Positions 1,270-14,976 of a stretch of DNA of 64,000 bases are shown in pieces. Within the stretch, counting starts at the first letter, position 1. Each line of letters starts with the position of its first letter. The stretch spans positions 27,751 to 91,750 of the forward strand of contig JAFGJW010000014.1 in NCBI GenBank assembly GCA_016928835.1, given 5' to 3'. The stretch is from Candidatus Woesearchaeota archaeon (GTDB taxonomy: Archaea > Nanobdellota > Nanobdellia > Woesearchaeales > GW2011-AR15). The position numbers and the translations under genes were made by a program. The notes below the pieces were generated by a model. That model saw only the letters and a list, made by a program, of their open reading frames with translations. It ran no database searches and was not told where the DNA came from.

Positions 1270-2445
1270 TCAGATTATAGACTCAAATACCTTTTTATAG
1301 GATTTGGCCACATTTCGCCAAAGCATATGTCTAGTACTATTATACGCGTTTTGTCCCAGTCTGCTCCTCAAGTCAGAATCAGACAATAATTTTATAACAG
1401 CATTGCTGATTAACTCAGGTTCTCCAAAGTCATCTAATAAGATTCCCTGTTCAGGTGAAATAAACTCCTTAGCATATAAGAAAGGTGTTGATATGACTGC
1501 GCAGCCGCAGCCCATCGCATAGGATAGAGTGCCGCTGACAATCTGATCAGGGTTAAGCGAAGAGCATATATAGATGTCAGTTGCCTGCAAATACCTAAAT
1601 AACTCTCTTAAAGTTACATATTTGTTAATAAATTTTACATTTTTCTCCAGACCCAATTCAATTACCTTATTTTGAAGAAATTCTCTGTATGACTCACCCT
1701 CTGACTTAAGATATTTGGGATGGGTCACCCCAATAATCAGATAAAGAACATTAGGGTATTTTTCCACTATATCTGGCATTGCATCTATCACATATTCATA
1801 TCCTCTGCCAGAAGATCTTGTGCCTCTTCCGGGCCTAAGAAAACCAAAAGAAGTAATCAAATCTCTATCACTGTAACCAAGCTCCTCTTTCAATGACAAA
1901 TTAGATACATGCTCTACTTTGTGTATACCATGAGGGATAACCTCAATCTTTGATTCATCAATATTGTAATGCTCTTTAAGAATATCAACAGCATTGTTAG
2001 ACATTACTACCAATTTATTAGAATGGTTGGCTATTGCTCTAATAATATCCCTCCTGTGCTCAGAAGGATATGGCAAAACTGTGTGCAGAGTCGTCGCAAC
2101 AGGTTTTTTTAGTGTCTCCAAGAAAGACAGTAAATTCTCACCATAATCACTGCCAAAAATCTTGAATTCATGCTGCACACTAACTAATTTAGTATTCTCA
2201 TCATTGTTTATTTCATTTGCTGCAATAATATATTCTTTTGCATCAGCGTCATTTATCTGAAACATTACTCTATCATCATAATTATACTCGCTGTTATTAT
2301 CATTCATTGCACCAATTTTTGATTTCAGCTTTGGATTAGCTGCTCGGTTAAAAGCTGAAGAAAGATCATACGTAAAAGTGGCAATTCCGCATTTACGCGG
2401 GGGATATGTGCCAAGGAAATAAATGTAAGATTGCTTTTTTATCAT
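1270..2445 (-). CDS. GT-B fold glycosyltransferase (GT4-like), paralog A
   Basis: YFLGTYPPRKCGIATFTYDL N-terminal motif and C-terminal GT-B nucleotide-sugar region; ~45% identical by eye to ORF 3476..4627. Confidence 0.65.
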   Translation of the reverse strand: MIKKQSYIYFLGTYPPRKCGIATFTYDLSSAFNRAANPKLKSKIGAMNDNNSEYNYDDRVMFQINDADAKEYIIAANEINNDENTKLVSVQHEFKIFGSDYGENLLSFLETLKKPVATTLHTVLPYPSEHRRDIIRAIANHSNKLVVMSNNAVDILKEHYNIDESKIEVIPHGIHKVEHVSNLSLKEELGYSDRDLITSFGFLRPGRGTRSSGRGYEYVIDAMPDIVEKYPNVLYLIIGVTHPKYLKSEGESYREFLQNKVIELGLEKNVKFINKYVTLRELFRYLQATDIYICSSLNPDQIVSGTLSYAMGCGCAVISTPFLYAKEFISPEQGILLDDFGEPELISNAVIKLLSDSDLRSRLGQNAYNSTRHMLWRNVAKSYKKVFESII

Positions 2446-2586
2446 AAGAATATTTTTTGGTAAACAGCCCCATTATATTAATTTATCTAATAGAAAGTGC
2501 ATAAAGTCTCTGGTTCTTGTCCCAAAAAAACATATACACTGGATAAAACAAAAAATATTATAAAAGTCAAGCATATTTATTATTGT

Positions 2587-3483
2587 ATGGTGTTTAAAAG
2601 ATATCAAAATAATCCTATCATAAAGCCTGACCCCAATAGAGAGTATGAAAAAAACTTTACATATAATCCATGTGCAATTGTCCACAACAATGAGATATAT
2701 TTGATATATCGAGCAGAAGGAGATTCTGATGTTTCTACACTTTGCCTGGCAACAAGCAATGATGGCTATAACTTCACAAAGTATAATCTTAATCCAATTA
2801 TCAAACCCACAATTCCTGAAGAAAAAGGGGGCTGTGAAGACCCAAGGATAATAAAGATAGATAACACATTCTATCTAACATTTACTGCATACAATGGTAT
2901 GCAGCCTGTTACAAGTGCTACTATTAATACAGCATTCGCTGTCTCAAATGACTTGTTTAATTGGGAAAAAAAGGGGATTCTAGTTAAGGGGATAAAAGCA
3001 GCCACTATTTTCTCTGAAAAAATAAATGAAAAATATCTTATGTTAATTGGAGGAGAATATATAAAGCTGGGATGGTCAAGCGACTTATTTAACTGGGAAA
3101 TCGAGGACAAGCCAATATTGGATGTAAGAGAAGGCAAGTTTGATGACAGATATGTGGAGGTTGGACCCCAGCCATTGGTATTCCAGGATAAACTAGTTTT
3201 ATTTTTCAATACTGCAGACAAACAAGGAGTATTCCATCCTTCTTTAGCTATACTTGATAAAAAAGATCCACATAGAGTCATTTATAGAGCAGATACACCC
3301 TTAATGACACCTGCACAAGATTATGAATTGAAGGGCAAAGTAAAAAATGTGATCTTTGGTACAGGACTGGTTGAATTCAATTCTCAGTATTTTTATTATT
3401 ATGGAGCAGCAGATAAATATGTTTGTCTGGCAACAATTGAAAAAGACATATTAGAAGAATATTTAACAGGTTTAATTAGTTAA
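2587..3483 (+). CDS. GH130-family glycoside phosphorylase/hydrolase-like protein (DUF377 beta-propeller). The track ORF starts at 2497; an internal ATG at 2587 is the more likely start.
   Basis: YNPCAIVHNNEIYLIYRAEG and GCEDPRIIKIDNTFYLTFTAYNG motifs typical of GH130. A TATA-like 'attataaaag' ~25 nt upstream of ATG 2587 suggests a leaderless start. Confidence 0.65.
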   Translation: MVFKRYQNNPIIKPDPNREYEKNFTYNPCAIVHNNEIYLIYRAEGDSDVSTLCLATSNDGYNFTKYNLNPIIKPTIPEEKGGCEDPRIIKIDNTFYLTFTAYNGMQPVTSATINTAFAVSNDLFNWEKKGILVKGIKAATIFSEKINEKYLMLIGGEYIKLGWSSDLFNWEIEDKPILDVREGKFDDRYVEVGPQPLVFQDKLVLFFNTADKQGVFHPSLAILDKKDPHRVIYRADTPLMTPAQDYELKGKVKNVIFGTGLVEFNSQYFYYYGAADKYVCLATIEKDILEEYLTGLIS

Positions 3484-4627
3484 GATTTTGGTCAAATAGA
3501 TCAAGATATGATTTTGCCACATTGCTCCAGAGCATATGCCTTGTGAAATCATAACAATTCTGTCCCATCCTTAACCTTAGCCCTGGATTGGATAGAAGTC
3601 TAATTAATGCCTTTGTGTATGCTTTTGAATTGCCCATGGGCACAAGTATGCCCCGATCAGATGTTACTATTTCCTTTGCATGCATAAAAGGCATTGTGAC
3701 AACAGGCCTGCCGCAGCCCATTGCATATGACAGAGTGCCGCTTGTTATCTGGCCAAGACCTTTACCTGAAGAAACAAAGACATCTGTAGCTCTTAAATAT
3801 TGCAGGAGCTTATTTAATTTCAAATATTTGTTAACAAACCTAATATTTTTCTGAAGGTTTAAACCATCGATAAGTCCAGTCAGATAGTATCTGTATTTTT
3901 CTCCTTCCTGCTTCAAAATACCTGGGTGAGTTGCTCCAATAATCAAGTACAATAGATTTGGGAATTTTTTGACAACTGGCGGAAGCGCCTTAATGATAGT
4001 TTCATAATCCTTGCCTCCGCTTATCAAACCAAATGAAGTAATAACGAGCTTGTTCCTTAATTTTAACTTTTTCTTTTGCTTGCTGCTTCTTTCAAAAGGC
4101 ACTTTATGGATCCCATGAGGTATAACAGTTATTCTCTCTCTTGGTATTTTGTAATCATTTGTAAGTATGTCAACTGCTTTGTCAGCCATGACTATTAGAG
4201 CAGAGGTTTTTTCTGCCAGATACTTGATTGTGTATCTAAGGTTAGCAGGTGGTTTTGGCACAACAGAATGAAGAGTCAAAACAACAGGTTTCTCTATTGT
4301 CTCAAGAAAAGCGCTGAGATAATTAAGGAATTTCCCGCCATAAATCCCGAACTCGTGCTGCACACACACCAATTTTATTGAGCGGGTTTGGTTGATTTTT
4401 TTAGCCACATTGATATAATCCTCTATCAAAGTCTCATTAATATTATACATTACCTCCTTTGGATATTCAAGGTCAGTTGAAAACCCGTTAGTCAGTGCAA
4501 TAATTTTAGGCTTAGTCTTGTATATAGATCTGTTTGAGATAGCTGTGCTCAAATCCTGAGTAAATGTTGCAATACCGCATTGTCTTGGAGGATAGGTACC
4601 TATATATGCAATGTAAGAAGGTCTCAT
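3476..4627 (-). CDS. GT-B fold glycosyltransferase (GT4-like), paralog B
   Basis: YIGTYPPRQCGIATFTQDL; same architecture as 1270..2445. Confidence 0.65.
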   Translation of the reverse strand: MRPSYIAYIGTYPPRQCGIATFTQDLSTAISNRSIYKTKPKIIALTNGFSTDLEYPKEVMYNINETLIEDYINVAKKINQTRSIKLVCVQHEFGIYGGKFLNYLSAFLETIEKPVVLTLHSVVPKPPANLRYTIKYLAEKTSALIVMADKAVDILTNDYKIPRERITVIPHGIHKVPFERSSKQKKKLKLRNKLVITSFGLISGGKDYETIIKALPPVVKKFPNLLYLIIGATHPGILKQEGEKYRYYLTGLIDGLNLQKNIRFVNKYLKLNKLLQYLRATDVFVSSGKGLGQITSGTLSYAMGCGRPVVTMPFMHAKEIVTSDRGILVPMGNSKAYTKALIRLLSNPGLRLRMGQNCYDFTRHMLWSNVAKSYLDLFDQNLN

Positions 4628-4701
4628 CTAATTTTTAAGAAAATAAAATAGTTAAAAAGCTTTTCTATACTTTTCAAAAGAATTTCTGTATGGGGGCACA
4701 A

Positions 4702-5928
4702 TTACTTTGTCTTTATCTTCATGTCTCCTTGGGAACTCAAGAATTCTATCTTATTCTCCCGACTCAACCATCCTATTGCTAAATAAATTAAATCCTCTTT
4801 TCTCTTCAAAGTATTTCTTATTTCAGACAAGTTTCTTGGGGTGTCTTTGCACATTCTATAGATCTCTCCAGCTATTTTGCCAATCTCATAATTCATTTGG
4901 TATGTAACTTGACCAGGCAGCAGTTCGTTGAGCAATTCCGCAGTACTTACTGATGCAACCCCAATCCTTTTATCAGCAGCACCATAGTATATATAAAGTC
5001 TGTCATCAAAAATGGCTGCGCCTTCCGGGAATACAACATTATTAACATCTCCCTGGAGCTCCCAGTCCAATTCAGGAGAGAAAAGTGGTTTTTCTAGCCT
5101 TCCTCTTATCTTTGTGGGATTTGCTTTGTCCAGAAGGGCAGCTGCAGCATGATATACTCTATAATTCTCTGCATTTTGTACTGCATGATAAATAAAAATC
5201 CATCCTTTTTCTGTTTCAATAGGAGGACAGCCGCCCCCAATATTTCTGGATTCATACCAATACTTTGGTTCAAGTATAATATAATTTGGCAATGTTTCCA
5301 GATATCTTTTCCAATAATCCATATCTGCTAATTGCTTGAAATCATCAAAATATATTACTTGTATATCGGGCAGAATTCTATGGATTAATGCAAATTTACC
5401 ATTAATCTTTTTTGGGAATAATATGGCATCTTTTTCCCATAGCAGTACATCTTCACCTTTCACTTCTTTATAAAATGACTTGAAAAAGAAATATCTATCT
5501 TTTAATTTTGAATTAAGGAAAATCTCTCTAACATCATTGTACTTAATCTTTGGACTTATCACTCCTTTCTTTTCCCATTTGATTAAATCTTTGCTGACAG
5601 CATATGCAATAAGGGCATTCTTACCGTCATATGCTGTATAGAGCATATAGTAGGTCTCGTCAATACACACTATCCTAGGGTCCTCTACACCTTGTTTTTC
5701 ATAATCATTTTCAGGAAATAGTATAGGTTTTTGACTGCGCTGGGCAACTTTCAGAGGACCATCAAGTTTACAATACCCAACACAAGAACGAAAATCTTTT
5801 CCAACTGCCCTATAGAACATATGTACATTGTTTTTATCCTTGATGCAGGCAGGATTTAGCACAGCCTGGTTTTCAAACTCTAAGTCTGTAGCTTCAAGAA
5901 TTACTCCCTCTTTTTTTACACTTACCAT
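4702..5928 (-). CDS. GH130-family glycoside phosphorylase-like protein, paralog B
   Basis: VLNPACIKDKNNVHMFYRAVG and GVEDPRIVCIDETYYMLYTAYDG motifs. Confidence 0.65.
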   Translation of the reverse strand: MVSVKKEGVILEATDLEFENQAVLNPACIKDKNNVHMFYRAVGKDFRSCVGYCKLDGPLKVAQRSQKPILFPENDYEKQGVEDPRIVCIDETYYMLYTAYDGKNALIAYAVSKDLIKWEKKGVISPKIKYNDVREIFLNSKLKDRYFFFKSFYKEVKGEDVLLWEKDAILFPKKINGKFALIHRILPDIQVIYFDDFKQLADMDYWKRYLETLPNYIILEPKYWYESRNIGGGCPPIETEKGWIFIYHAVQNAENYRVYHAAAALLDKANPTKIRGRLEKPLFSPELDWELQGDVNNVVFPEGAAIFDDRLYIYYGAADKRIGVASVSTAELLNELLPGQVTYQMNYEIGKIAGEIYRMCKDTPRNLSEIRNTLKRKEDLIYLAIGWLSRENKIEFLSSQGDMKIKTK

Positions 5929-6417: not shown

Positions 6418-6963
6418 ATGATTCAAAGAGTAAAGCAGGATATTTTAGATGTTCTGTCAAAGGTAGTAGATGCAATAAAAAATCACAGGATCTACGAATT
6501 AAGGGAATTAAGCAATCATGTTATCCATAATGCCTCAATCTTCCAGGACAAAGACTCCATAAGAATTGCAGTCATTATTTATGCATTGTCTAAAATCTTG
6601 AAAGAAAGAAATGATTTTGAACAGATAGCGCTAAATAAGATGGAAGATGCCGGCCGGCTTCTTGAAAAAGATGATTTCAACAATTATGATATCTGCATAA
6701 AATCACTGCTAAGTGAAATTTCGAACCAAAGCACCAAAACAAGGTTCTATATTGAGGAAGTGCTAAAAAGAGCAGAGATTAGCAAGGCATCAAAGATGTA
6801 TGAGCACGGCATATCACTTGCGCAGGTAGCCGATGCATTGGATGTTTCCAGATGGGAGCTCATGGACTACATAGGCAAGACCACTATAGCAGATTCCTTT
6901 GAGGACATCAGTGATATAGATGACAGGCTAAGTTTTGCACGATCCATTTTCACAAAAGAATGA
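6418..6963 (+). CDS. UPF0175-like HTH protein (candidate antitoxin) with an extra N-terminal domain
   Basis: C-terminal HGISLAQVADALDVSRWELMDYIGKT resembles the UPF0175 HTH; 4-nt ATGA overlap with the downstream PIN-like gene. Confidence 0.4.
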   Translation: MIQRVKQDILDVLSKVVDAIKNHRIYELRELSNHVIHNASIFQDKDSIRIAVIIYALSKILKERNDFEQIALNKMEDAGRLLEKDDFNNYDICIKSLLSEISNQSTKTRFYIEEVLKRAEISKASKMYEHGISLAQVADALDVSRWELMDYIGKTTIADSFEDISDIDDRLSFARSIFTKE

Positions 6964-7652
6964 AAGCACTCGTATTTGACACAGGACCCTTGATCAGTTT
7001 GTCATTAAATAATCTGCTTGTTCTTTTGCCTAAACTAAGGGATAGATATAAAGGGGATTTTTTCATTACACCAGGTGTCAGGAGAGAGGCTATTGAAAGA
7101 CCTATAGAGTCAAAAAGATTTAAATTTGAAGCTTTGCAGGTATTAAAGCAATTGCATACTGCAATTCTTAAGATGTACGAGAACAATGAGCTCAAAGATA
7201 AAACTCTGAATCTATTGAACTTGGCAAACTCTATTTTCAAGGCTCATGATAATTATATAAAAATCGTGCATTATACCGAAACAGAGGTAATACAAAGCTG
7301 CCTTGATATGAATGCAGAAGCTGTTGTAATTGATGAATTTATCACAAGACAATTAATAGAAAATCCAGAAAAAGTAAAAGAGAGACTTGAGAAAAAGCTG
7401 CATCTGCCGATATATACAGATGAAAACAATTTAAAAAAGTTCCAGGAGATAACTAAAGGGATTAAGGTTATTAGGTCTGTTGAATTAGTTACCATCGCCT
7501 TTGAACTTGGCTTGCTTGATGAGTTTGCACTAGACATACCTGAGCCGAGAAAGACCTTGCTTGATGGATTATTATGGGGTGTTAAGCTAAATGGCTGCTC
7601 TGTTTCTCAAAGGGAAATTGAAAGGATAATTAAGATTGAGAATTCTAAATAG
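6960..7652 (+). CDS. PIN-like (DUF3368-type) nuclease-domain protein, candidate toxin
   Basis: N-terminal MKALVFDTGPLISLSLNNLLVLLPKL...ITPGVRREA matches the DUF3368/PIN-like opening; translationally coupled to the upstream ORF. Confidence 0.45.
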   Translation: MKALVFDTGPLISLSLNNLLVLLPKLRDRYKGDFFITPGVRREAIERPIESKRFKFEALQVLKQLHTAILKMYENNELKDKTLNLLNLANSIFKAHDNYIKIVHYTETEVIQSCLDMNAEAVVIDEFITRQLIENPEKVKERLEKKLHLPIYTDENNLKKFQEITKGIKVIRSVELVTIAFELGLLDEFALDIPEPRKTLLDGLLWGVKLNGCSVSQREIERIIKIENSK

Positions 7653-7815: not shown

Positions 7816-8049
7816 ATGGCAGAAAAAGTTGCACGAGCAGGTGTTAGAAAAGAAGGCGGCTATCTATATTTTGTAGATAAGCAAGGGGATGTCTCAAGAG
7901 CTAGAATGGCTCGAGGCGGCAGGAAAAAAGGAAAGCAGAAAACAGAGAAAGTAGCTAAAGTCGGCGTCAGAAAAGAAAGAGGATATCTTTATTTTGTAGA
8001 TAAAAGCGGAGACGTCTCAAGAGCTAAGATGGCTCGAGGCAGAAGATAA
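7816..8049 (+). CDS. small basic protein made of two ~37-aa tandem repeats (KVA.xGVRKExGYLYFVDKxGDVSRAxMARGxR)
   Basis: Internal duplication visible at both protein and DNA level (7824..7930 vs 7945..8045); GGAGG RBS 10 nt upstream; oligo-T tract downstream. Confidence 0.5.
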   Translation: MAEKVARAGVRKEGGYLYFVDKQGDVSRARMARGGRKKGKQKTEKVAKVGVRKERGYLYFVDKSGDVSRAKMARGRR

Positions 8050-8095: not shown

Positions 8096-10192
8096 TTATG
8101 GATGGATGTATCTAGCTATAATCGCGTTCGCTGCGGCCACAAAATCTATTTTTTCTCTAGTAACATAAGAATAAAAATTTGTTTTAACTGCATCATTTAC
8201 CTCGAAGAATTCTGAAGTGTGGCTCTGGTCCGCAAAAAACCCCTTCTTGGGATGATGGGCATATTCATGGGTTACTAATGCAACTAATGAACTAACCTCT
8301 CCAGGAGTTAATGATTTATTATTTCCTGTTCTCATCATCAATTCTTTAATTAACTCATTCCTTGTATTAAACACAACATATGCAGGTGCACAATAGGGTA
8401 ATCTAATTGTCCATGCTGCTACATCTCGATTACTGACTCCTGTCAGGACTCCAACATCCTGCAACCCATTAGCCTGTGCAATTAGTGAGGATAGGTAACA
8501 TCCAATTTCTTGTAATGCCATTCTTTCTTTTGAATATCCCAACTCTGATGCTAATCTTACCAAAGACCTAGGAACAGGAAATTGATATGGAACAGTGACT
8601 GAAGTCAGCAGGTTTCTTATTGAAAACCCTTTTTTGCCAGCATCTAACCCTCTAACAAAACATTTATATTCTTCACTTAGATATATGCCCTCAGATTCTC
8701 CCACTTCCCCAACATATAACTTACCTCTTCGATTTGCCTTTCTTATCTGGGATAGACTCACTTTCTCTTCGATAGTTTTATCTCTCTTTTTTATATGAGC
8801 TGGAATTATTTTTCGTCTCGATATTAGATATTGTGGCGCGATGCTTGTTAATAGTATTGAACATTTGTGTAAAAAATCTCTCCAACCAGATGCAATGCTT
8901 TCTCCAGCATCATTAAAGGACTCCCGACTAATAATCCTCTTAATTGTGTTAATAGTTGTGTATCCAACTGTCCCAATGCCGGCCACACCAGCTAAAACAC
9001 CTAAACCTACTAGTGCATATCCTACTACTTCTGATATAGTGGGGTTGATATTCTGACTTTGTTCGGCAAGATAAACAAGTAGGCGACCTACAGGGTATAG
9101 CGCAGCCAGACCTACCATTACTTTGGCAAATTGATGTGCCTTTTTAAAACCAAGAACTTCATTTAGCCAATATAGTTGATTCGCATTCAGGTTTTCCAAA
9201 TTACTTAGTAAGTGATTTATATAGATACGTCTGTACCTATTTTTGTTTTTTAGTACATGTTGTCTCACAAAATAGGGTATTTCATTTCTGCCTCTAGTAA
9301 GAATTATTTCTGTTGGTAAATCAATAAGAATTGCTGGGTACTCCTCACCAAACCAATTTGAACTAATATACAGGCCACGCTGAGTGTAGTTACAATGCCC
9401 TGTTACTCCTATTTCTCTACCTGCACCCATAAATACCTCAATTTCGTATTCTTTTTCTCCATCTTTTATTACTTCAACCATCTTAAAATCAAATTCATCT
9501 CTTGAATTAATCTGCTCACCATTTACAATAATTTTAGCAATCCTTGGATCAACATAACCAGCATAAGTCCACAAGGAATTTTCCATAGTTCCATAGCCTA
9601 GTTTAAAATCTTCTAAGGTTATTGTTGTCCCTCCAGCATCTGGATCTGTCTTCTGAAATTCGACCATCCTTTCCCCATTAGACCCAATATATCTTGTTCT
9701 CCAGCCATCTGACTCCACTATAACACTTTTTGAGCGTCCAAGAGCAGCTAGAAAGCCTTGACCATGACATCCAATAGTAGCACCATTATCTGATTTACTA
9801 GAGCTCCCAACTACAGACAGGTGATGTATCACTTGTTGAATAGACATGCCACCACCATTATCTCTAACAGTAGCTGAGTATATGCTCTCAAAGTCAACTT
9901 CTCCTTCTAAGTTGTAGTCTATCACAATTTCTCCTCCTTCGTCTATCTCATCAAGACTGTTCTGTATCAATTCTCTTAAAACTTCATCCCCTGGAAACTG
10001 TGCTTCAATTGTGTGCGTTAATTCTCTTTCACAAAGGGATTTATCAGAATAGGCTCCAATTTCTCTTACAATAGCATCTAATGCAAGAGGATCCTCTTCT
10101 GTGACAGCAGCAACTACACTATCCAATATGGCTCGCTGCATATATATTGGGACCATCTGCCACATTGGGATTCTTATTATTGGATGTGTCAT
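8096..10192 (-). CDS. GHKL (Bergerat-fold) ATPase, Hsp90/MORC-like, with central TM helices and a C-terminal HExxH metallopeptidase-like motif (GHKL-B)
   Basis: N-box ELIQNSLDE, G1 RDNGGGMS, G2 GCHGQGF; hydrophobic segments ~aa 350-420 (MVGLAALYPVGRLLVYLA, GYALVGLGVLAGVAGIGTVGY); C-terminal THEYAHH...SEFFE. A 1-nt gap separates it from the upstream GHKL-A gene (operon). Confidence 0.65.
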   Translation of the reverse strand: MTHPIIRIPMWQMVPIYMQRAILDSVVAAVTEEDPLALDAIVREIGAYSDKSLCERELTHTIEAQFPGDEVLRELIQNSLDEIDEGGEIVIDYNLEGEVDFESIYSATVRDNGGGMSIQQVIHHLSVVGSSSKSDNGATIGCHGQGFLAALGRSKSVIVESDGWRTRYIGSNGERMVEFQKTDPDAGGTTITLEDFKLGYGTMENSLWTYAGYVDPRIAKIIVNGEQINSRDEFDFKMVEVIKDGEKEYEIEVFMGAGREIGVTGHCNYTQRGLYISSNWFGEEYPAILIDLPTEIILTRGRNEIPYFVRQHVLKNKNRYRRIYINHLLSNLENLNANQLYWLNEVLGFKKAHQFAKVMVGLAALYPVGRLLVYLAEQSQNINPTISEVVGYALVGLGVLAGVAGIGTVGYTTINTIKRIISRESFNDAGESIASGWRDFLHKCSILLTSIAPQYLISRRKIIPAHIKKRDKTIEEKVSLSQIRKANRRGKLYVGEVGESEGIYLSEEYKCFVRGLDAGKKGFSIRNLLTSVTVPYQFPVPRSLVRLASELGYSKERMALQEIGCYLSSLIAQANGLQDVGVLTGVSNRDVAAWTIRLPYCAPAYVVFNTRNELIKELMMRTGNNKSLTPGEVSSLVALVTHEYAHHPKKGFFADQSHTSEFFEVNDAVKTNFYSYVTREKIDFVAAANAIIARYIHP

Positions 10193-10193
10193 T

Positions 10194-11807
10194 TTATAAT
10201 ATCTCCAACATAGTACGATTTTCAGCTTCTTCTATTCCATACAAACAGGTTTTTAAAAAAAAGTCCAGAGCAGATTTACGTGTAGATTCTGGCAGCTCAT
10301 CATGAAAAAATCCATGATTTTTATTTATATATAGTTCAGTTACAGGTTCACCATGATACCTAAAATTAGAAGCAAAAGGAGATACAGTATCCTGTGGACC
10401 TTCTATTAGATATACTGTAATATCAGGCGTTTCCAATTCTCTAAGACTATATTGCATTCTTTGCTCCTCTGACATATCTCTTAATTGCACTCTAGTTGCA
10501 GATTCTTTCACATCTTGAAAATCAATGACACCCAAATTAGGATTAACTAATAAGCTTTCAATTATTTCTATATGTCCGACATTATTTGGGTCAACAACAA
10601 GTGCACCTGAATAAAATCTATCTAAGTTCATATGCCTATTTCTTGAGATTATTATTGGCCTCTCTGAAGACATATCTTTATTAAAATAGACACTCAAGAG
10701 ACTACAAACTTCATCAGTTGTTCCAGTAGCAGCAACACCCAGAAAGATTCGGGAGTGTAATGCAGATCTCAATATCCTATCATATGTTGCTAGGGGCAGA
10801 TGCTCTTTTATATATTCCAAGTAAGGTAATATTGCCTGCACAAATACTTCCCTTTGTGCTTGTCTGAACCTTTTATCTTTAATAAAGGCATTTCTCCCCT
10901 CAACAAGTTGACATGATAGGGGATAATCAGTAATCATATCTAAAGCAAAACTATCATGAGTAACATACACACCACCAGACAAAGACAATTGGTCACCATA
11001 ATCCTTTTTTGGTAGACCCAAAACTACTTCAATTGTTTCTCTATCAAATGGGATACTATATGTTTGGGGTTGTCTTATTGGAATTGGATAACCAAAGTTT
11101 ATTTGCTTGCCATTACAGCTGATTATACACCTTTCAGGCGGCACATATTGAACATATTCTTCAATCAGTTTTCTACTTGATTTTACTTTACCTAAACCCA
11201 GCTTGTTTTTTATTCTGCCAAAAAAGCCATCGCGAGAACCTAATTGAATATGTATCGTTGTACCCGGCTCCCTGGTTTCATGTTTAGAATATCTTACAGT
11301 GAGTTTTCCATCCTCCATAAAATACACTGCTCGATAGTGAGTTCCATTTTGTGTATCTACAATAACTCTGCCACCTCTTTGCACAACATTCAATATTGAA
11401 TAAAAACCTACACCAAACCTACCAATTTTATCTACCTTTCCTGAGAAAAAGGGTAATGCCAAGTCATATAAAAGAGTCTCAAAGGTCATTCCAGAACCAT
11501 CATCTTTAATTATGATCTCATCTCCTCTATCCACAAATTGAATATTCTTAGAGCCTGCATCTATTGAATTAGCAATTAATTCAATCAGCTCTCTCCCAGA
11601 TCTCGTGAACTGATGAGTAATTAAGTCGTGCAATTTATTTGATACATAATCTTGGTTATAATCAAAATCAGGTATAGTGTAATCTTCTCCCTGGTCTACA
11701 GCTTTTTGTAGAGCCTCAACCGTTTGTGCAAATTTTCCTGAATTTATTGTCGCTAATGCTATGAGTCTTTCTAAAGGCACTACTATACCCTTTTTTGGCT
11801 CATTCAT
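10194..11807 (-). CDS. GHKL ATPase, Hsp90-like (GHKL-A), soluble
   Basis: N-box ELIANSIDA, G1 IKDDGSGMT, G2 IGRFGVGFYS (almost identical to the Hsp90 IGQFGVGFYS signature). Confidence 0.7.
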   Translation of the reverse strand: MNEPKKGIVVPLERLIALATINSGKFAQTVEALQKAVDQGEDYTIPDFDYNQDYVSNKLHDLITHQFTRSGRELIELIANSIDAGSKNIQFVDRGDEIIIKDDGSGMTFETLLYDLALPFFSGKVDKIGRFGVGFYSILNVVQRGGRVIVDTQNGTHYRAVYFMEDGKLTVRYSKHETREPGTTIHIQLGSRDGFFGRIKNKLGLGKVKSSRKLIEEYVQYVPPERCIISCNGKQINFGYPIPIRQPQTYSIPFDRETIEVVLGLPKKDYGDQLSLSGGVYVTHDSFALDMITDYPLSCQLVEGRNAFIKDKRFRQAQREVFVQAILPYLEYIKEHLPLATYDRILRSALHSRIFLGVAATGTTDEVCSLLSVYFNKDMSSERPIIISRNRHMNLDRFYSGALVVDPNNVGHIEIIESLLVNPNLGVIDFQDVKESATRVQLRDMSEEQRMQYSLRELETPDITVYLIEGPQDTVSPFASNFRYHGEPVTELYINKNHGFFHDELPESTRKSALDFFLKTCLYGIEEAENRTMLEIL

Positions 11808-11943
11808 TTTGAAATCCCCTGAGAAATCGATTTACTGCGTATTCAATCAAATGACTTCTATTCCTAAAAAGACCCTCTTCTAATTGTAAATCAATGTCAT
11901 TAATAGTTACATCTTCTATTGATATTGAAAGTTTCTTTTTCAT
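11800..11943 (-). CDS. ribbon-helix-helix (CopG/Arc/MetJ-like) small regulator, 47 aa; not in the ORF track
   Basis: MKKKLSISIEDVTINDIDLQLEEGLFRNRSHLIEYAVNRFLRGFQNE is a typical beta-strand + two-helix RHH. Its TGA stop overlaps the ATG of GHKL-A (ATGAATGA, 8-nt overlap). Confidence 0.55.
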   Translation of the reverse strand: MKKKLSISIEDVTINDIDLQLEEGLFRNRSHLIEYAVNRFLRGFQNE

Positions 11944-11957
11944 ACTACTTAGTAGTA
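11943..11957. promoter_or_regulatory. 7-bp inverted repeat TACTACT-T-AGTAGTA overlapping the RHH start codon; candidate RHH operator. TATATA box and ATACTACT direct repeats follow in the 282-bp divergent intergenic region.
   Basis: Palindrome read directly from the sequence; position is typical of an autoregulated RHH operator. Confidence 0.3.
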
Positions 11958-12089
11958 AAAGATACTACTATATAAATCTTACTATTTTTTATTACTGTAT
12001 AGTAATTAAACCAGAGAGATTTATCTATAAATAGTTAACTCATGTTAATAACAAAACATTTTAAATAACCCTTTTCTTTCTCTGTTCTT

Positions 12090-13610
12090 ATGAAGGGGCT
12101 TATCATCTCAGGCAAGTTCTCTGAATTAATTGTGAGGCAGAAATCTGATCAGGAAATAGAACTGGGAGAGCTATTGATCGCAGAGAACAAGAATTCAAAA
12201 ATATTGCTGCAGTGTTATGACTTAGTCTATGGAAGCCAGATTTCTCAATTAAACCTTGAGCTGGTTTCTGGGATGAAGCTAGAGGAGGAATCTAATCTAG
12301 AATTCATGGATGAGAAGTTAAGGAATTATAACCTAGCTTTGTTAAAAAATTTAATAACAATTACTCCCAATAAGGCACATTCATCAAAATCATTGCCTGG
12401 TTTTTTTTCTCATGTGAGGGAGGTTAAGAAAGATGATTTAAAGTTTATCACCAAACCAGAGAACCCATTGTTCACTGGCAAACTGAGGTCAGGATCAAAG
12501 GAATTGGATGTTGATATCTTTCTACCCGGGGATAAGGTTTTTACCCATCACGTGCTTTTAGGTGCATCCACTGGCAAAGGGAAATCTAATCTAGCTGCAA
12601 CTATGCTCTGGGATTTAATGAACAGAGACTATGCAGGAATTCTTGTTTTAGACCCGCATGATGAATACTTTGGAAGAAACAAGCTTGGCTTAAAAGACCA
12701 CCCAAATAGAAAGAATCTTGTCTATTACAGCCCTGATGCGCCTCATGGTGCCAGAACATTGAGAATCAATATTAAGCAGATAAGACCAGGCCACTTTAAT
12801 GGTGTTATTGACTGGAGCCAGGCACAGGACGAGGCATTAACTGCGTATTACAGGAAGTATAAAGAAGGCTGGATTGAAGCAGTTTTATTAGAAAAAGAAG
12901 TGCATGGTTTTATGGAAGGCACATTAGCTGTATTGAAAAGGAGATTATTGTCATTGCTGGATTTGGATGTAGCTGAGGAGAAGATTTTCTGTAATGGCAT
13001 ATTTGATTTCAATTCAGGCCGAACAACAATAGCAGACATATGCAGTGACCTGGAAAAAGGGAAGATTGTGGTTATAGATACATCAAATTTCTCTGGCAAT
13101 GTGGAAATCCTTATTGGAAGCCTTGTAACAAGTGAAATATTCTACAGGTACAAGAATTACAAATCCAAAGGTGTGCTGGATGATAAACCCACTATTTCCA
13201 TCTTTCTTGAGGAAGCTCCAAGGGTTTTGGGAAAAGAAGTGCTTGAAAAAGGCCCTAATATTTTTTCAACTATTGCCCGTGAAGGCAGAAAATTTAAAGT
13301 TGGTTTGACAGCAATAACACAGCTCCCTTCTCTAATACCCAGAGAGATACTAGCTAACATAAATACCAAGATAATTCTAGGGATAGAGATGAATGCTGAA
13401 AGGCAGGCAATAATAGAATCTGCAGCCCAGGATCTAAGCTCTGATTCAAGGGCAATTGCCAGTTTAGACAAAGGAGAAGCAATAATTACTTCGAATTTCA
13501 CAAGGTTTGCCATTCCGGTCAAGATTCCTTTGTTTAGTGAGTATGTAAAAAAAGATTTGAAAAAAGAAAAGGAAGTGCAGACTGATTTTAGTGGGATTAA
13601 ATTGAGTTAA
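12090..13610 (+). CDS. HerA/FtsK-superfamily ATPase (DUF87 HerA-like)
   Basis: Walker [12 protein letters not shown] followed by [10 protein letters not shown] (the DUF87 'iiDphGEY' motif), Walker B FLEEAPR, C-terminal [17 protein letters not shown]; N-terminal HAS-barrel-like region. Confidence 0.7.
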
Positions 13611-13648
13611 GCTAAAGATTTATAAGATTTGATTACATACTATAACCT

Positions 13649-14203
13649 ATGAGAGATATGTCTGACAAAAACATCCTGGACGAGTTCTGCATCAAGTTCT
13701 GCAGTATTGTAGAGAAGCACTGCAAATATATTATTGTGTCGGGTTTTGTCGCGATAAGCTCGGGCAGAGTAAGGGCAACCGAGGATATTGACATGATTAT
13801 TGAGAGATTGTCTTTTGAAAAGTATAAACAATTGCATGATGATTTAGTTAAGGCAGGGTTTGTGTGCATGCAGTCAGGCAAAGCAGAAGAGAGTTATGGA
13901 TACTTAAAGGGGAGTTTGGCTATAAGATATACTATAAAAGACAAACCACTGCCAAATATGGAGGTGAAATTCGCTAAAGATGAGCTAGATACATACCAGA
14001 TAAACACAAGAAAAAAACTGCCATTGACAGGGCTTGATGTATGGTTCAGCAGCATAAACATGAATATTGCATTTAAGGAAGAATTACTAAAATCAGATAA
14101 GGATATGAAGGATGCTGAGCATCTTAGGAAGATATACCCTGAAAAAGTTGAAGAGAATGAGATTCACAAGATTAAGAAGATGATCAAAAGGCTGAGATCA
14201 TGA
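13649..14203 (+). CDS. nucleotidyltransferase-fold (Pol-beta-like/MNT-like) protein
   Basis: SGFVAISSGRVRATEDIDMII fits the NTase-fold hG[GS]x9-13Dh[DE]h signature; lies 39 nt after the HerA-like gene. Confidence 0.4.
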   Translation: MRDMSDKNILDEFCIKFCSIVEKHCKYIIVSGFVAISSGRVRATEDIDMIIERLSFEKYKQLHDDLVKAGFVCMQSGKAEESYGYLKGSLAIRYTIKDKPLPNMEVKFAKDELDTYQINTRKKLPLTGLDVWFSSINMNIAFKEELLKSDKDMKDAEHLRKIYPEKVEENEIHKIKKMIKRLRS

Positions 14204-14406
14204 GCGAAGAGATTGACCGCTGGGTAAAGTACATGAATGAGAACCCAGATAAATGGAAGAAGCAGCATACAGAGTTCATCAATGCGCAGTTTGACAAATC
14301 ACAAAGGTTTATTCATAGACTATTAAAAGAGCCGAAGGGCAGAGAAAAAATAATCAAAGCATACCACATAAAGAATGTCAAAGGCTATAAAGGCCTCCTG
14401 GGTTAA
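14200..14406 (+). CDS. small hypothetical protein (68 aa), translationally coupled (ATGA overlap)
   Basis: ORF only; the operon context is the support. Confidence 0.3.
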   Translation: MSEEIDRWVKYMNENPDKWKKQHTEFINAQFDKSQRFIHRLLKEPKGREKIIKAYHIKNVKGYKGLLG

Positions 14407-14412
14407 AATAGT

Positions 14413-14976
14413 ATGCTAAAAAAACAAATTCGCGTACTGGGAATTGATGATTCTCCTTTTAACAAGTTTGAAGAGAAAAAAGTGTTAGTTGTTGCTGCAC
14501 TGTTTAGAGGAGGAGAATTCTTAGATGGTGTAATGTCAACTTATGTTAAGATAGACGGTCCTGATTCCACAAGTAAGCTGATTAAGATGATAAACAAGTG
14601 CAAGTTCAAGCCACAGTTACATGCTATCTTGTTAGATGGGATAGCGTTTGGCGGATTTAATATAATTGATATTGAAGAGCTGTGTCAGGAAACAAATATT
14701 CCTGTTATCGTTGTTATAAGGAATTATCCTGACTTTGACAAAATTGGAAGAGCATTAATAAAAATCAAACAGGAAGAGAAGATAGAATTATTGAAAAAAG
14801 CAGGAGAAGTCCATTCTTTTAACAAAATATTTTTCCAGGCCAAAGGTTGTCCTTTGGATAAAGCTCGGGAAATTCTAAAAGTAACAACAACTCATGCGTA
14901 TATACCAGAGCCTCTGAGAGTTGCTCACTTAATTGGTGCTGGGATAGTCTATGGTGAAAGCAGGGGAAGAGCTTAA
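14413..14976 (+). CDS. UPF0215/DUF99 family protein (archaeal; proposed EndoV/RNase H-like fold)
   Basis: N-terminal IRVLGIDDSPF is the family hallmark; expected length. Confidence 0.6.
   Translation: MLKKQIRVLGIDDSPFNKFEEKKVLVVAALFRGGEFLDGVMSTYVKIDGPDSTSKLIKMINKCKFKPQLHAILLDGIAFGGFNIIDIEELCQETNIPVIVVIRNYPDFDKIGRALIKIKQEEKIELLKKAGEVHSFNKIFFQAKGCPLDKAREILKVTTTHAYIPEPLRVAHLIGAGIVYGESRGRA

Follow-up and report, generated by a model that had tools for sequence, protein, structure and literature searches.

What does a gene trio joining a small ribbon-helix-helix (RHH) protein to two Hsp90-like ATPases do in an archaeon of the Candidatus Woesearchaeota? The initial annotation of the window (the whole stretch of 64,000 nucleotides that was analysed) proposed a conflict or defence module. 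The three ORFs are present on the minus strand at the annotated positions. The RHH gene (11800-11943) encodes a protein of 47 residues that matches Pfam RHH_8 just under the cutoff (E 5.9e-5; 23.6 bits versus 25.4). The second gene, designated S (10194-11807), encodes a soluble Hsp90-like GHKL ATPase of 537 residues. The third, designated L (8096-10192), encodes a protein of 698 residues combining an Hsp90-like GHKL ATPase with a zincin. Reading of the ORFs confirmed the two reported junctions in the sequence: RHH and S share 8 nucleotides, ATGAATGA, and a single nucleotide separates the stop codon of S from the start codon of L. RHH, S, and L form a single tightly coupled operon.

S and L scored 31.9 and 29.3 bits, respectively, against Pfam HATPase_c_3, both over the gathering cutoff of 25. 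The ATP-binding core of S spans residues ~66-195 (~11223-11612, minus strand), and no domain was assigned to its last ~200 residues. Residues 1-345 of L (9158..10192, minus strand) comprise an N-terminal helical extension, the Hsp90-like ATPase domain, and a middle/transducer domain with a conserved G301-R302 pair ('TRGRN'). The Bergerat motifs, annotated as complete in the two proteins, are conserved across both families: GHKL motifs I to IV (ExxxNxxD with its catalytic Glu and Asn, DxGxG, the Gly-rich G2 box, and GT) are invariant. The family-wide residues are E74, N78, D81, D111, G115, G141, G144, G146, and G188 in L, and E76, N80, D83, D102, G104, G106, G129, G132, G134, and G182-T183 in S, the latter family showing IGRFGxGF, E303, and R305 as further invariants. 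S and L are each shown to have an intact Hsp90-type ATP-binding domain. The two proteins are also paralogous, as first annotated, with a BLASTP E value of 2e-14 and a profile-profile match (99.8 %, E 7.6e-30) over the first ~305 residues.

Comparison of the family profiles with PDB sequences returned only Hsp90 proteins among the top 60 matches, both for L (Hsp90, TRAP1, GRP94, and HtpG; E 1e-23) and for S (HtpG, 8.7e-19; TRAP1, 1.2e-16). By these profiles, the ATPase domains of S and L are each specifically Hsp90-like. The G2 box had been described as Hsp90/MORC-like; the likeness to Hsp90 holds in sequence, whereas that to MORC is found at the fold level only, the predicted structure of L showing a middle domain of the Hsp90/MORC type. 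Profile searches for housekeeping families gave no assignment above cutoff. An HtpG/HSP90 orthologue was rejected for L (PRK14083, 28.5 bits versus 455; HtpG, 12.2 versus 371) and for S (HtpG, 24.1 versus 371), as were MutL (S against TIGR00585, 20.3 bits versus a cutoff of 180; no MutL domains by Pfam), topo VI-B (15.8 bits versus cutoffs of 274-381; gene for the A subunit absent nearby), and MORC/paraMORC (fold-level match only; no MORC in the top 60 PDB sequence matches). Neither Pfam nor NCBIfam has a model for the family outside the ATP-binding domain.

In the structural model of L, Hsp90-like N-terminal and middle domains lead into a membrane hairpin, after which come a region similar to the Hsp90 C-terminal domain and, last, a Wss1/SprT-like zincin. 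The predicted hairpin (residues 355-412; 8957..9130, minus strand) consists of two hydrophobic Gly-rich helices with both ends cytoplasmic, is preceded by a Lys-rich stretch and followed by Lys and Arg residues, and is modelled with low pLDDT. Its hydrophobic segments (residues 355-377 and 385-412; Kyte-Doolittle 19-residue mean >1.6, values 1.6-2.0) have no equivalent in S. Thus, the transmembrane helices ascribed to L alone are indeed confined to L, but the hairpin is specific to some clades and does not define the family, since the segment is variable or missing among homologues and most family members have no membrane segment. The region similar to the C-terminal (dimerisation) domain of Hsp90 is an alpha/beta segment covering residues ~452-545 (8558..8839, minus strand; approximate boundaries).

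The minimal zincin domain covers residues ~546-698 (8099..8557, minus strand) and contains the HEYAH motif (H642-E643-x-x-H646; 8255-8269, minus strand) and the third metal ligand H658 (8219-8221, minus strand). In the model, it adopts a zincin fold with the third His, and HExxH-x11-H is near-universal among 55 L homologues. The annotated metallopeptidase-like motif, HEYAH...E, is therefore conserved in its HExxH part and embedded in a zincin fold, the third ligand being His rather than Glu. The L protein of the window had no match to SprT-like (PF10263) or WLM (PF08325) in Pfam; five of 30 relatives did match, all below threshold (three and two, respectively; best E 0.0088 and 0.071). In structural comparison, the domain is closest to Wss1 and also matches Spartan. 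As in L, HExxH is followed in Wss1 and SPRTN by a third His and an aromatic residue (HG/SxxF). L also resembles these proteases in working with an ATPase, since Wss1 and SPRTN cooperate with Cdc48/p97 (PMC10308373, PMC9127365), but the putative partner in L is a GHKL module fused in cis and not an AAA+ protein. The sequence similarity lies under Pfam thresholds, and binding of DNA or of ubiquitin/SUMO is not indicated for L.

Wss1 and Spartan are DNA-dependent crosslink proteases (PMC5127644, PMC4559962). This relationship would fit a DNA-associated machine, in which the GHKL pair clamps DNA, as do MORC, MutL, and topo VI-B, and the zincin degrades crosslinked or stuck proteins. The operon of the window diverges from a gene for a HerA-like translocase and has an Endo_dU/DUF99 nuclease gene in its vicinity, and MutL is encoded four genes upstream of S in locus L003. 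We nevertheless consider such a machine very unlikely. S and L are Hsp90-like in sequence, with Hsp90 as the only top profile matches, and not MORC- or MutL-like; no DNA-binding domain could be recognised; HerA and Endo_dU are missing at all other loci; and a membrane hairpin fits poorly with a clamp scanning chromatin. Topo VI-A and MutL_C partners are absent, restriction-modification, HEPN, or nuclease partner genes of the MORC-type context were not found beside the pair in the examined loci, and the neighbours are housekeeping genes.

Minimal zincins sharing the fold of L also include membrane proteases of the BlaR1 and HtpX types. L might accordingly be imagined as a membrane-tethered, site-specific regulatory protease cutting one substrate, such as a membrane-bound regulator, with the ATPase pair as gate or sensor in a BlaR1/ImmA-like manner. 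Coupling of the pair to small transcription factors that differ by lineage is compatible with this function. It appears highly improbable to us, as most members have no membrane segment and no conserved third gene, which could encode the substrate, accompanies the pair. In addition, the catalytic residues of the ATPase are fully conserved in both subunits, which suggests that real mechanical work is performed.

S was located directly upstream of L in every locus examined, comprising ~12 archaeal or uncultured loci (among them L001, L002, L005, L007/L089, L009, L010, L011, L144, L145, and L146) and 33 myxobacterial loci (L013 and 32 of 32 Polyangia loci). Elsewhere than in the window, the two genes usually overlap by 1-4 nucleotides. 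The pair is found in DPANN archaea and in myxobacteria (Sorangium, Polyangium, and Chondromyces). In giant proteins, S-like and L-like modules are fused with the zincin in S-then-L order: the first module favours the S profile, the second the L profile, and HExxH comes after. The constant adjacency and the giant fusions support a heterodimer, so that the heterodimeric clamp suggested by the initial annotation remains plausible. The Hsp90-type ATP domain (RELIxNSxDA, DxGxGM, and IGxFGxGFYS) is shared with HtpG, TRAP1, and GRP94, but Hsp90 is a homodimer whereas S and L are two distinct subunits. L further differs from Hsp90 by its N-terminal helical extension, the hairpin of some clades, and the C-terminal metalloprotease, the latter being present in no described Hsp90.

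For S, L, and their relatives, the NCBIfam model for the N-terminal ATP-binding domain of sacsin ranked first or second among the matches, the two-gene forms scoring 27-38 versus a cutoff of 50. Sacsin has been described as a chaperone (PMC3710099); with several Hsp90-like modules per chain, it resembles the giant two-module relatives. It is a single eukaryotic chain ending in DnaJ and HEPN domains, not in a zincin.

The RHH gene is preceded by a putative promoter and operator region (11943..11976, minus strand), to which roles were assigned from sequence and repeats. A TATA-like element, TTTATATA (11969-11976), is followed downstream by three ATACTACT/TAGTAGTA half-sites extending to the RHH start codon. 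Inverted repeats are located at 11950-11957/11963-11970 and 11943-11949/11951-11957, and a direct repeat was also found. The palindrome initially reported over the RHH start codon, TACTACT-T-AGTAGTA (11943-11957), is present and forms part of this larger putative operator. A 21-nucleotide candidate site, TAGTAGTA-N5-TACTACTA (11950-11970), occurs once in the 64-kb window and was produced by 0 of 100 shuffles. RHH is probably an autorepressor of the operon: translationally coupled to S, it would bind the triple TAGTAGTA site over the TATA box and transcription start.

The regulator is not a constant companion of the pair. No RHH homologue was detected upstream of S in six other loci tested, and no RHH gene adjoining the pair was called in the gene tables of further loci. 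In L146, a 49-aa ORF, AbrB-like on visual inspection, precedes the pair. Small DNA-binding proteins upstream of the pair thus differ by lineage, RHH being, on these searches, restricted to the present one. The proposal of an RHH-GHKL-GHKL trio as a conserved unit was not sustained; as far as gene order and homology indicate, the conserved unit is the S-L pair only.

These comparisons bear on the conflict or defence module originally proposed, in which an invader or its effects would be sensed by the GHKL pair, ATP-driven closure would free the metalloprotease as an effector of abortive infection, and RHH would be an antitoxin-like silencer. Toxin-antitoxin and defence loci typically have small RHH- or AbrB-like regulators, toxin-antitoxin-like pairs are found close by, both in the window and in L007, and giant multidomain fusions are known. 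The family is sparse and fast-diverging, with 38 % identity to the nearest relative. A variant operon (L001 and L046) encodes an additional MoxR-like AAA protein and another HExxH protein, which we take to resemble NTPase-centred conflict systems and counted in favour of defence. The nearest PADLOC models were those of Tiamat TmtA, which shares the HATPase_c_3-type GHKL core. The likeness is limited to ~90 residues of the ATP-binding core, or ~90 of 1300-1800 profile positions, giants included, and the rest of the protein has no detected homology. TmtA was rejected as an assignment because only positions ~18-160 of profiles of 1063-1782 positions aligned with S, L, their relatives, or the giants. 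No other PADLOC family matched S, L, or the L001 partners, and the pair is, as initially suspected, undescribed. Full-length family members were not found in viral contigs.

The genomic context also speaks against defence. The 'island' of toxin-antitoxin, HerA-like, NTase, and DUF99 genes was weak as a description, since the flanks consist of glycosyltransferases, GH130, a MetH-like cobalamin-dependent methyltransferase, and an ABC ATPase of two domains that carries a 4Fe-4S domain at its N-terminus and has an ABCE1/RLI-like architecture. HerA, NTase, and DUF99 (Endo_dU) genes were not present beside S-L in the gene table of any other locus, and neither RHH nor HerA recurs. In Sorangium, the pair occupies one collinear position and diverges at the rate of its flanks; across genera, S-L alone is still alignable around this locus. 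A type II toxin-antitoxin or defence island was rejected on these grounds, together with the absence of RHH from the six other loci tested and the housekeeping neighbours. The defence interpretation is not supported, and we regard it as unlikely.

In L005/L006, S and L are followed on one strand by genes for GrpE, a 106-aa protein, DnaK, the thermosome, and DnaJ, with a divergent ArsR-type regulator. This arrangement recalls Hsp90 HtpG, which works with DnaK (PMC9478669). Other neighbours of the pair include the proteasome and aCPSF1, SOD and MsrA, a 16S rRNA gene, a tRNA synthetase, and GatD/E. The location of the pair amid ordinary chromosomal genes in DPANN archaea and myxobacteria looks like protein quality control and less like an antiviral function. 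A clear association with proteostasis genes is confined to a single lineage. DPANN genomes have a high density of housekeeping genes, so such proximity could be due to chance.

We propose, with confidence that is evenly balanced, that S-L is an undescribed two-subunit Hsp90-like ATPase machine with a metalloprotease, likely acting in protein quality control or stress and repressed by RHH in the present lineage. S and L would pair as a heterodimer, as suggested by synteny and fusion, in place of the Hsp90 homodimer. ATP binding would shut the two N-domains as a clamp round a polypeptide client, which the metalloprotease attached in cis to L would then cut; in the present archaeal clade, the hairpin may anchor the machine to the membrane on its cytoplasmic side. 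The most probable function would be that of a chaperone-protease driven by GHKL rather than AAA+ ATPases. Several observations weigh against proteostasis: the family is small for a core chaperone (89 cluster representatives at E<=1e-3), upstream regulators swap between lineages as they also do in toxin-antitoxin and defence loci, the L001/L046 operon is reminiscent of conflict systems, and Wss1/SprT relatives act on DNA-bound rather than misfolded proteins.

To our knowledge, the energy-dependent proteases that have been studied well (Lon, FtsH, Clp, HslUV, and the proteasome) are all AAA+-driven, and Hsp90-type ATPases have been described as chaperones rather than as motors of proteolysis. 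Tentatively, S-L could represent the first ATP-dependent protease in which an Hsp90/GHKL ATPase takes the place of the AAA+ ring: a heterodimeric clamp that would seize a polypeptide and pass it to a Wss1/SprT-like zincin attached in cis, and that would give some DPANN archaea an Hsp90-type quality-control machine, membrane-tethered in the present clade. If true, a conserved Hsp90-like pair carrying its own metalloprotease would extend the known means by which ATP is coupled to proteolysis. Some culturable myxobacteria are genetically tractable, and the occurrence of the family in Sorangium, Polyangium, and Chondromyces may make the idea directly testable. For annotation, the lesson is that an 'RHH plus ATPase' operon in DPANN archaea need not be a defence system. 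Archaea have generally been reported to lack Hsp90 (PMC1525184, PMC12874294), and the finding bears on this old observation (PMC1525184).

Three consecutive open reading frames on the minus strand were confirmed at the coordinates proposed by the initial annotation: RHH, the 47-aa ribbon-helix-helix gene (11800-11943), S, encoding the soluble GHKL ATPase of 537 aa (10194-11807), and L, encoding the 698-aa GHKL ATPase with a C-terminal HExxH motif (8096-10192). The overlap of the RHH and S ORFs (ATGAATGA) and the gap of a single base between the stop of S and the start of L, both previously claimed, were read in the sequence. The RHH product scored slightly below the threshold of the Pfam model RHH_8 (23.6 vs 25.4 bits). 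The palindrome described at the RHH start is real and belongs to a larger array of three ATACTACT/TAGTAGTA half-sites located around this start (11943-11970). The 21-nt core of the array was found once in the 64 kb and in 0 of 100 shuffles, and TTTATATA is present directly upstream from the array on the coding strand. RHH would act as a repressor of the operon, from a site overlapping the putative TATA box and a start that is probably leaderless.

Both S and L scored above the threshold of Pfam HATPase_c_3, and the catalytic residues of Hsp90-type ATPases are intact in the two proteins. Their paralogy, as initially proposed, was confirmed by BLASTP (2e-14) and by comparison of the family profiles (probability of 99.8 % and E of 7.6e-30 for residues 1 to ~305), the homology extending to a helical extension N-terminal to the ATPase fold. 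Searches with single sequences gave weak matches only, the scores being far under the cutoffs of the models concerned (those of the HSP90 family, sacsin, topo VI-B, MutL, and restriction enzymes). Neither protein was confidently assigned to a housekeeping family (HtpG, topo VI-B, or MutL), and the possibility that they are HtpG orthologues was rejected on the basis of these scores. No Pfam or NCBIfam model was found for the family outside the ATPase domain. Word-indexed homology searches with L, S, or a 38-sequence profile detected almost nothing beyond the query. When L was searched exhaustively with HMMER against 1.84 billion cluster representatives, 89 relatives were identified at E<=1e-3, including 7 at <1e-30. 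The profile of 38 L relatives matched the N-domains of Hsp90 among PDB sequences (E 1e-23), the top 60 matches being all Hsp90, and the S-family profile behaved likewise, matching HtpG (8.7e-19) and TRAP1 (1.2e-16). Since both family profiles match Hsp90, S and L are, at the level of sequence profiles, specifically Hsp90-like, and not MORC-, MutL-, or topo VI-B-like. Of the Hsp90/MORC-like character initially ascribed to the G2 boxes of the two ATPases, the first term was retained and the second abandoned at this level. Hsp90 has been reported to be missing from Archaea, with the exception of sporadic 'HSP90-like' genes and some recent cases (PMC1525184, PMC12874294).

An S homologue (526-573 aa) was found directly upstream from an L homologue at every retrieved locus, usually with an overlap of 1-4 nt. 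These loci were archaeal or uncultured (L002-L004, L005/L006, L007/L008/L089, L009, L010, L011, L144, L145, L146, and the variant L001) or probably bacterial (L013). Adjacency was also observed at 32 of 32 loci of the Polyangia, including Sorangium cellulosum So ce56, many other Sorangium strains, Minicystis, Polyangium, Chondromyces, and Byssovorax. A metagenome scan added one more locus and a scan of genome contigs with a close-clade alignment produced no matches, the phyletic pattern of the family resting on pattern-limited scans. An RHH homologue was present upstream from S in none of the six other loci tested, and RHH, HerA/DUF87, NTase, or Endo_dU genes adjoining the pair were not called in the further loci. 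Conservation is thus limited to the S-L pair and does not extend to the RHH-S-L trio initially proposed as the module. A divergent regulator of the ArsR/HTH_20 type was found upstream from the pair in L005. In L146, a 49-aa ORF (332-481) stops 1 nt short of S, contains SNSIIVIPKLLKEEL, and has no Pfam match; it looks AbrB/SpoVT-like by eye and, if real, may place a different small DNA-binding fold in the position of RHH. The pair was collinear with its upstream flank in Sorangium strains and diverged to the same extent as this flank (84-96 % nucleotide identity), and S-L was the only alignable part between genera. Such a pattern is indicative of a vertically inherited pair maintained by purifying selection.

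Giant proteins of 1500-2300 aa containing two GHKL modules accounted for about a third of the HMMER matches. In these proteins (P0016 encoded by locus L012, P0027, P0044, and others), an S-like module comes first and is joined by a long linker to an L-like module, after which the HExxH domain is found. The first module was scored higher by the S profile and the second by the L profile, as exemplified by P0027 (132.8 vs 98.2 for module 1 and 61.9 vs 162.8 for module 2, for the S and L profiles, respectively). Fusion in the order of the genes is a classical hint of physical interaction. Additional features were an ACTMAP-like peptidase domain in P0044, a transglutaminase core in P0011, and a bacterial-type peptidyl-tRNA hydrolase gene on the contig encoding P0016. 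In sacsin, several Hsp90-like modules are strung together (PMC3710099).

The HEYAH sequence of L (residues 642-646) is part of a conserved motif, hhhH[EH]xxH, which was detected in 55 of 90 distinct homologues about 50-110 residues before the C-terminus and was followed 9-14 residues later by (S/T)H(G/N)xxF(Y/F). In an alignment of 30 sequences, N609, H642, E643, and H646 were invariant, and H658 and F662 were conserved in at least 90 % of the sequences. The initial annotation had proposed an HExxH...E metallopeptidase-like motif. The HExxH portion is present and conserved; the gluzincin reading was ruled out, as the downstream Glu is not conserved. H658 is conserved, and the third ligand is therefore a His residue, as in Wss1 and SprT. 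The zincin domain of L was not recognized by Pfam in the protein encoded by the window, the only recurrent matches among relatives being weak (SprT-like in 3 of 30 and WLM in 2 of 30). HHxxH replaces HExxH in three long relatives, P0062, P0064, and P0080, the latter being the 1210-aa protein of L001. The hypothesis that the C-terminus of S is a degenerate copy of the zincin (a pseudo-protease) was not supported by hhalign (E 0.18, 0.11, and 0.022) or by a separate test.

Structural matches listed for the C-terminal half of L comprised Wss1 (score of 7.7), a C-terminal fragment of yeast Hsp90 (7.6), the C-terminal domain of E. coli HtpG (7.3; 87 residues, 3.6 Å), selecase (7.1), jannalysin (6.6), abylysin and HtpX (both 6.5), and Spartan (5.8). 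The top 15 Foldseek matches for this half were middle and C-terminal structures of Hsp90, all weak (best E 6.6e-3). Moderate evidence thus assigns residues ~452-545 to a predicted Hsp90-C-domain-like segment, and good evidence assigns residues ~546-698 to a predicted minimal zincin. The resemblance to Wss1 and Spartan would also fit a DNA clamp associated with a crosslink protease, as would the HerA and Endo_dU genes, which are a feature of the window only; we regard this possibility as improbable. The AAA+ unfoldase Cdc48/p97 is a partner of Wss1 and SPRTN (PMC10308373, PMC9127365).

Transmembrane helices had been attributed to L only. Hydropathy confirmed two strongly hydrophobic segments in this protein (355-377 and 385-412) and none in S. 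Lys and Arg residues border the two segments at their outer ends and the intervening loop is devoid of basic residues, as expected for a predicted hairpin (355-412) with both ends in the cytoplasm. The hairpin is clade-specific.

Ordinary chromosomal genes adjoin S-L across loci. Among their products are aCPSF1, a subunit of the proteasome, MutL, a thioredoxin-like protein, a tRNA synthetase, SOD and MsrA, GatD/GatE, and ADP-forming acetyl-CoA synthetase. In L089 (1-955) and L007, an archaeal 16S rRNA gene (Rfam RF01959, 891 bits) is divergent from S and ~250 nt upstream from it, the small 'ORFs' of this region in L089 being translations of rRNA. In L005 (804-10854) and L006, S-L and the genes that come after it on its strand, encoding GrpE, a 106-aa ORF product, DnaK, a thermosome subunit, and DnaJ, may form a heat-shock supra-operon of an uncultured archaeon. 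A variant operon of five genes, in L001 (5751-15329) and L046 (1826-11094), encodes a MoxR-like AAA protein, proteins of 272 and 634 aa, S (567 aa), and the 1210-aa L-type protein, with HHYAH in place of HExxH. A separate 'THEYGHH' motif is found N-terminally in the 634-aa protein. Apart from a weak match of the MoxR-like protein to AAA_5, the partner proteins of L001 were not assigned to any PADLOC or Pfam family.

The flanks of the operon in the window include glycosyltransferases, GH130 enzymes, a MetH-like cobalamin-dependent methyltransferase, and a two-domain ABC ATPase with an N-terminal 4Fe-4S domain, which is ABCE1/RLI-like by its architecture. The 'island' label initially applied to the region is therefore weak. 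At positions 1270-5928, two GT4 glycosyltransferase genes are clustered with a pair of GH130 genes of the mannoside phosphorylase-like type, one of which is fused to a DUF2582 winged-helix domain. The putative 'TA pair' of the initial annotation (6418-7652, plus strand) encodes a 181-aa HTH/UPF0175-like protein, overlapping by 4 nt a 230-aa protein without family. A 77-aa basic protein (7816-8049, plus strand), convergent on the 3' end of L, is built from two tandem copies of a ~38-aa repeat that share about 80 % identity and contains KVARAGVRKEGGYLYFVDKQGDVSRARMARG twice; Pfam gave no significant match for it. Divergent from the RHH operon, positions 12090-14976 (plus strand) encode a HerA/DUF87-like ATPase (506 aa), a 184-aa protein (weak PADLOC match to PDC-M21B), an overlapping 68-aa ORF, and an Endo_dU/DUF99 nuclease; no NurA was evident in this cluster, which does not recur with S-L at other loci.

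A role of S-L in defense or abortive infection appears unlikely. PADLOC detected only the Tiamat anti-phage protein TmtA, over ~90 residues of the ATP-binding core of S, L, their relatives, and the giants. Scans of viral contigs of IMG/VR only matched the GHKL core, over at most 278 residues of S, and revealed no full-length member. The identification of the giant relatives as TmtA was rejected since the match is confined to the ATP-binding core.

The locus with the heat-shock cluster, together with the housekeeping neighborhoods, favors protein quality control, and we consider that there is about an even chance that this is the role of S-L. In such a machine, S and L would form an Hsp90-like heterodimer closing its N-domains on ATP. 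Candidates for the role of the middle-domain arginine of Hsp90 are two conserved motifs located past the middle-domain strand, G-R in L (301-302) and E-x-R in S (303-305). The zincin of L would cleave the polypeptide held in the clamp, and, in the archaeon of the window, the machine would be anchored at the inner side of the membrane. That S-L instead acts as a dedicated regulatory protease is given little probability. In the open-access literature searched, which covered GHKL or Hsp90-like proteins in connection with HExxH, SprT, sacsin, or DPANN, we found no description of this architecture, in which a zincin lies at the C-terminus of one member of a pair of Hsp90-like proteins. The Hsp90-like GHKL ATPase is itself of a known kind; S-L is new in its subunit organization and in its effector domain.
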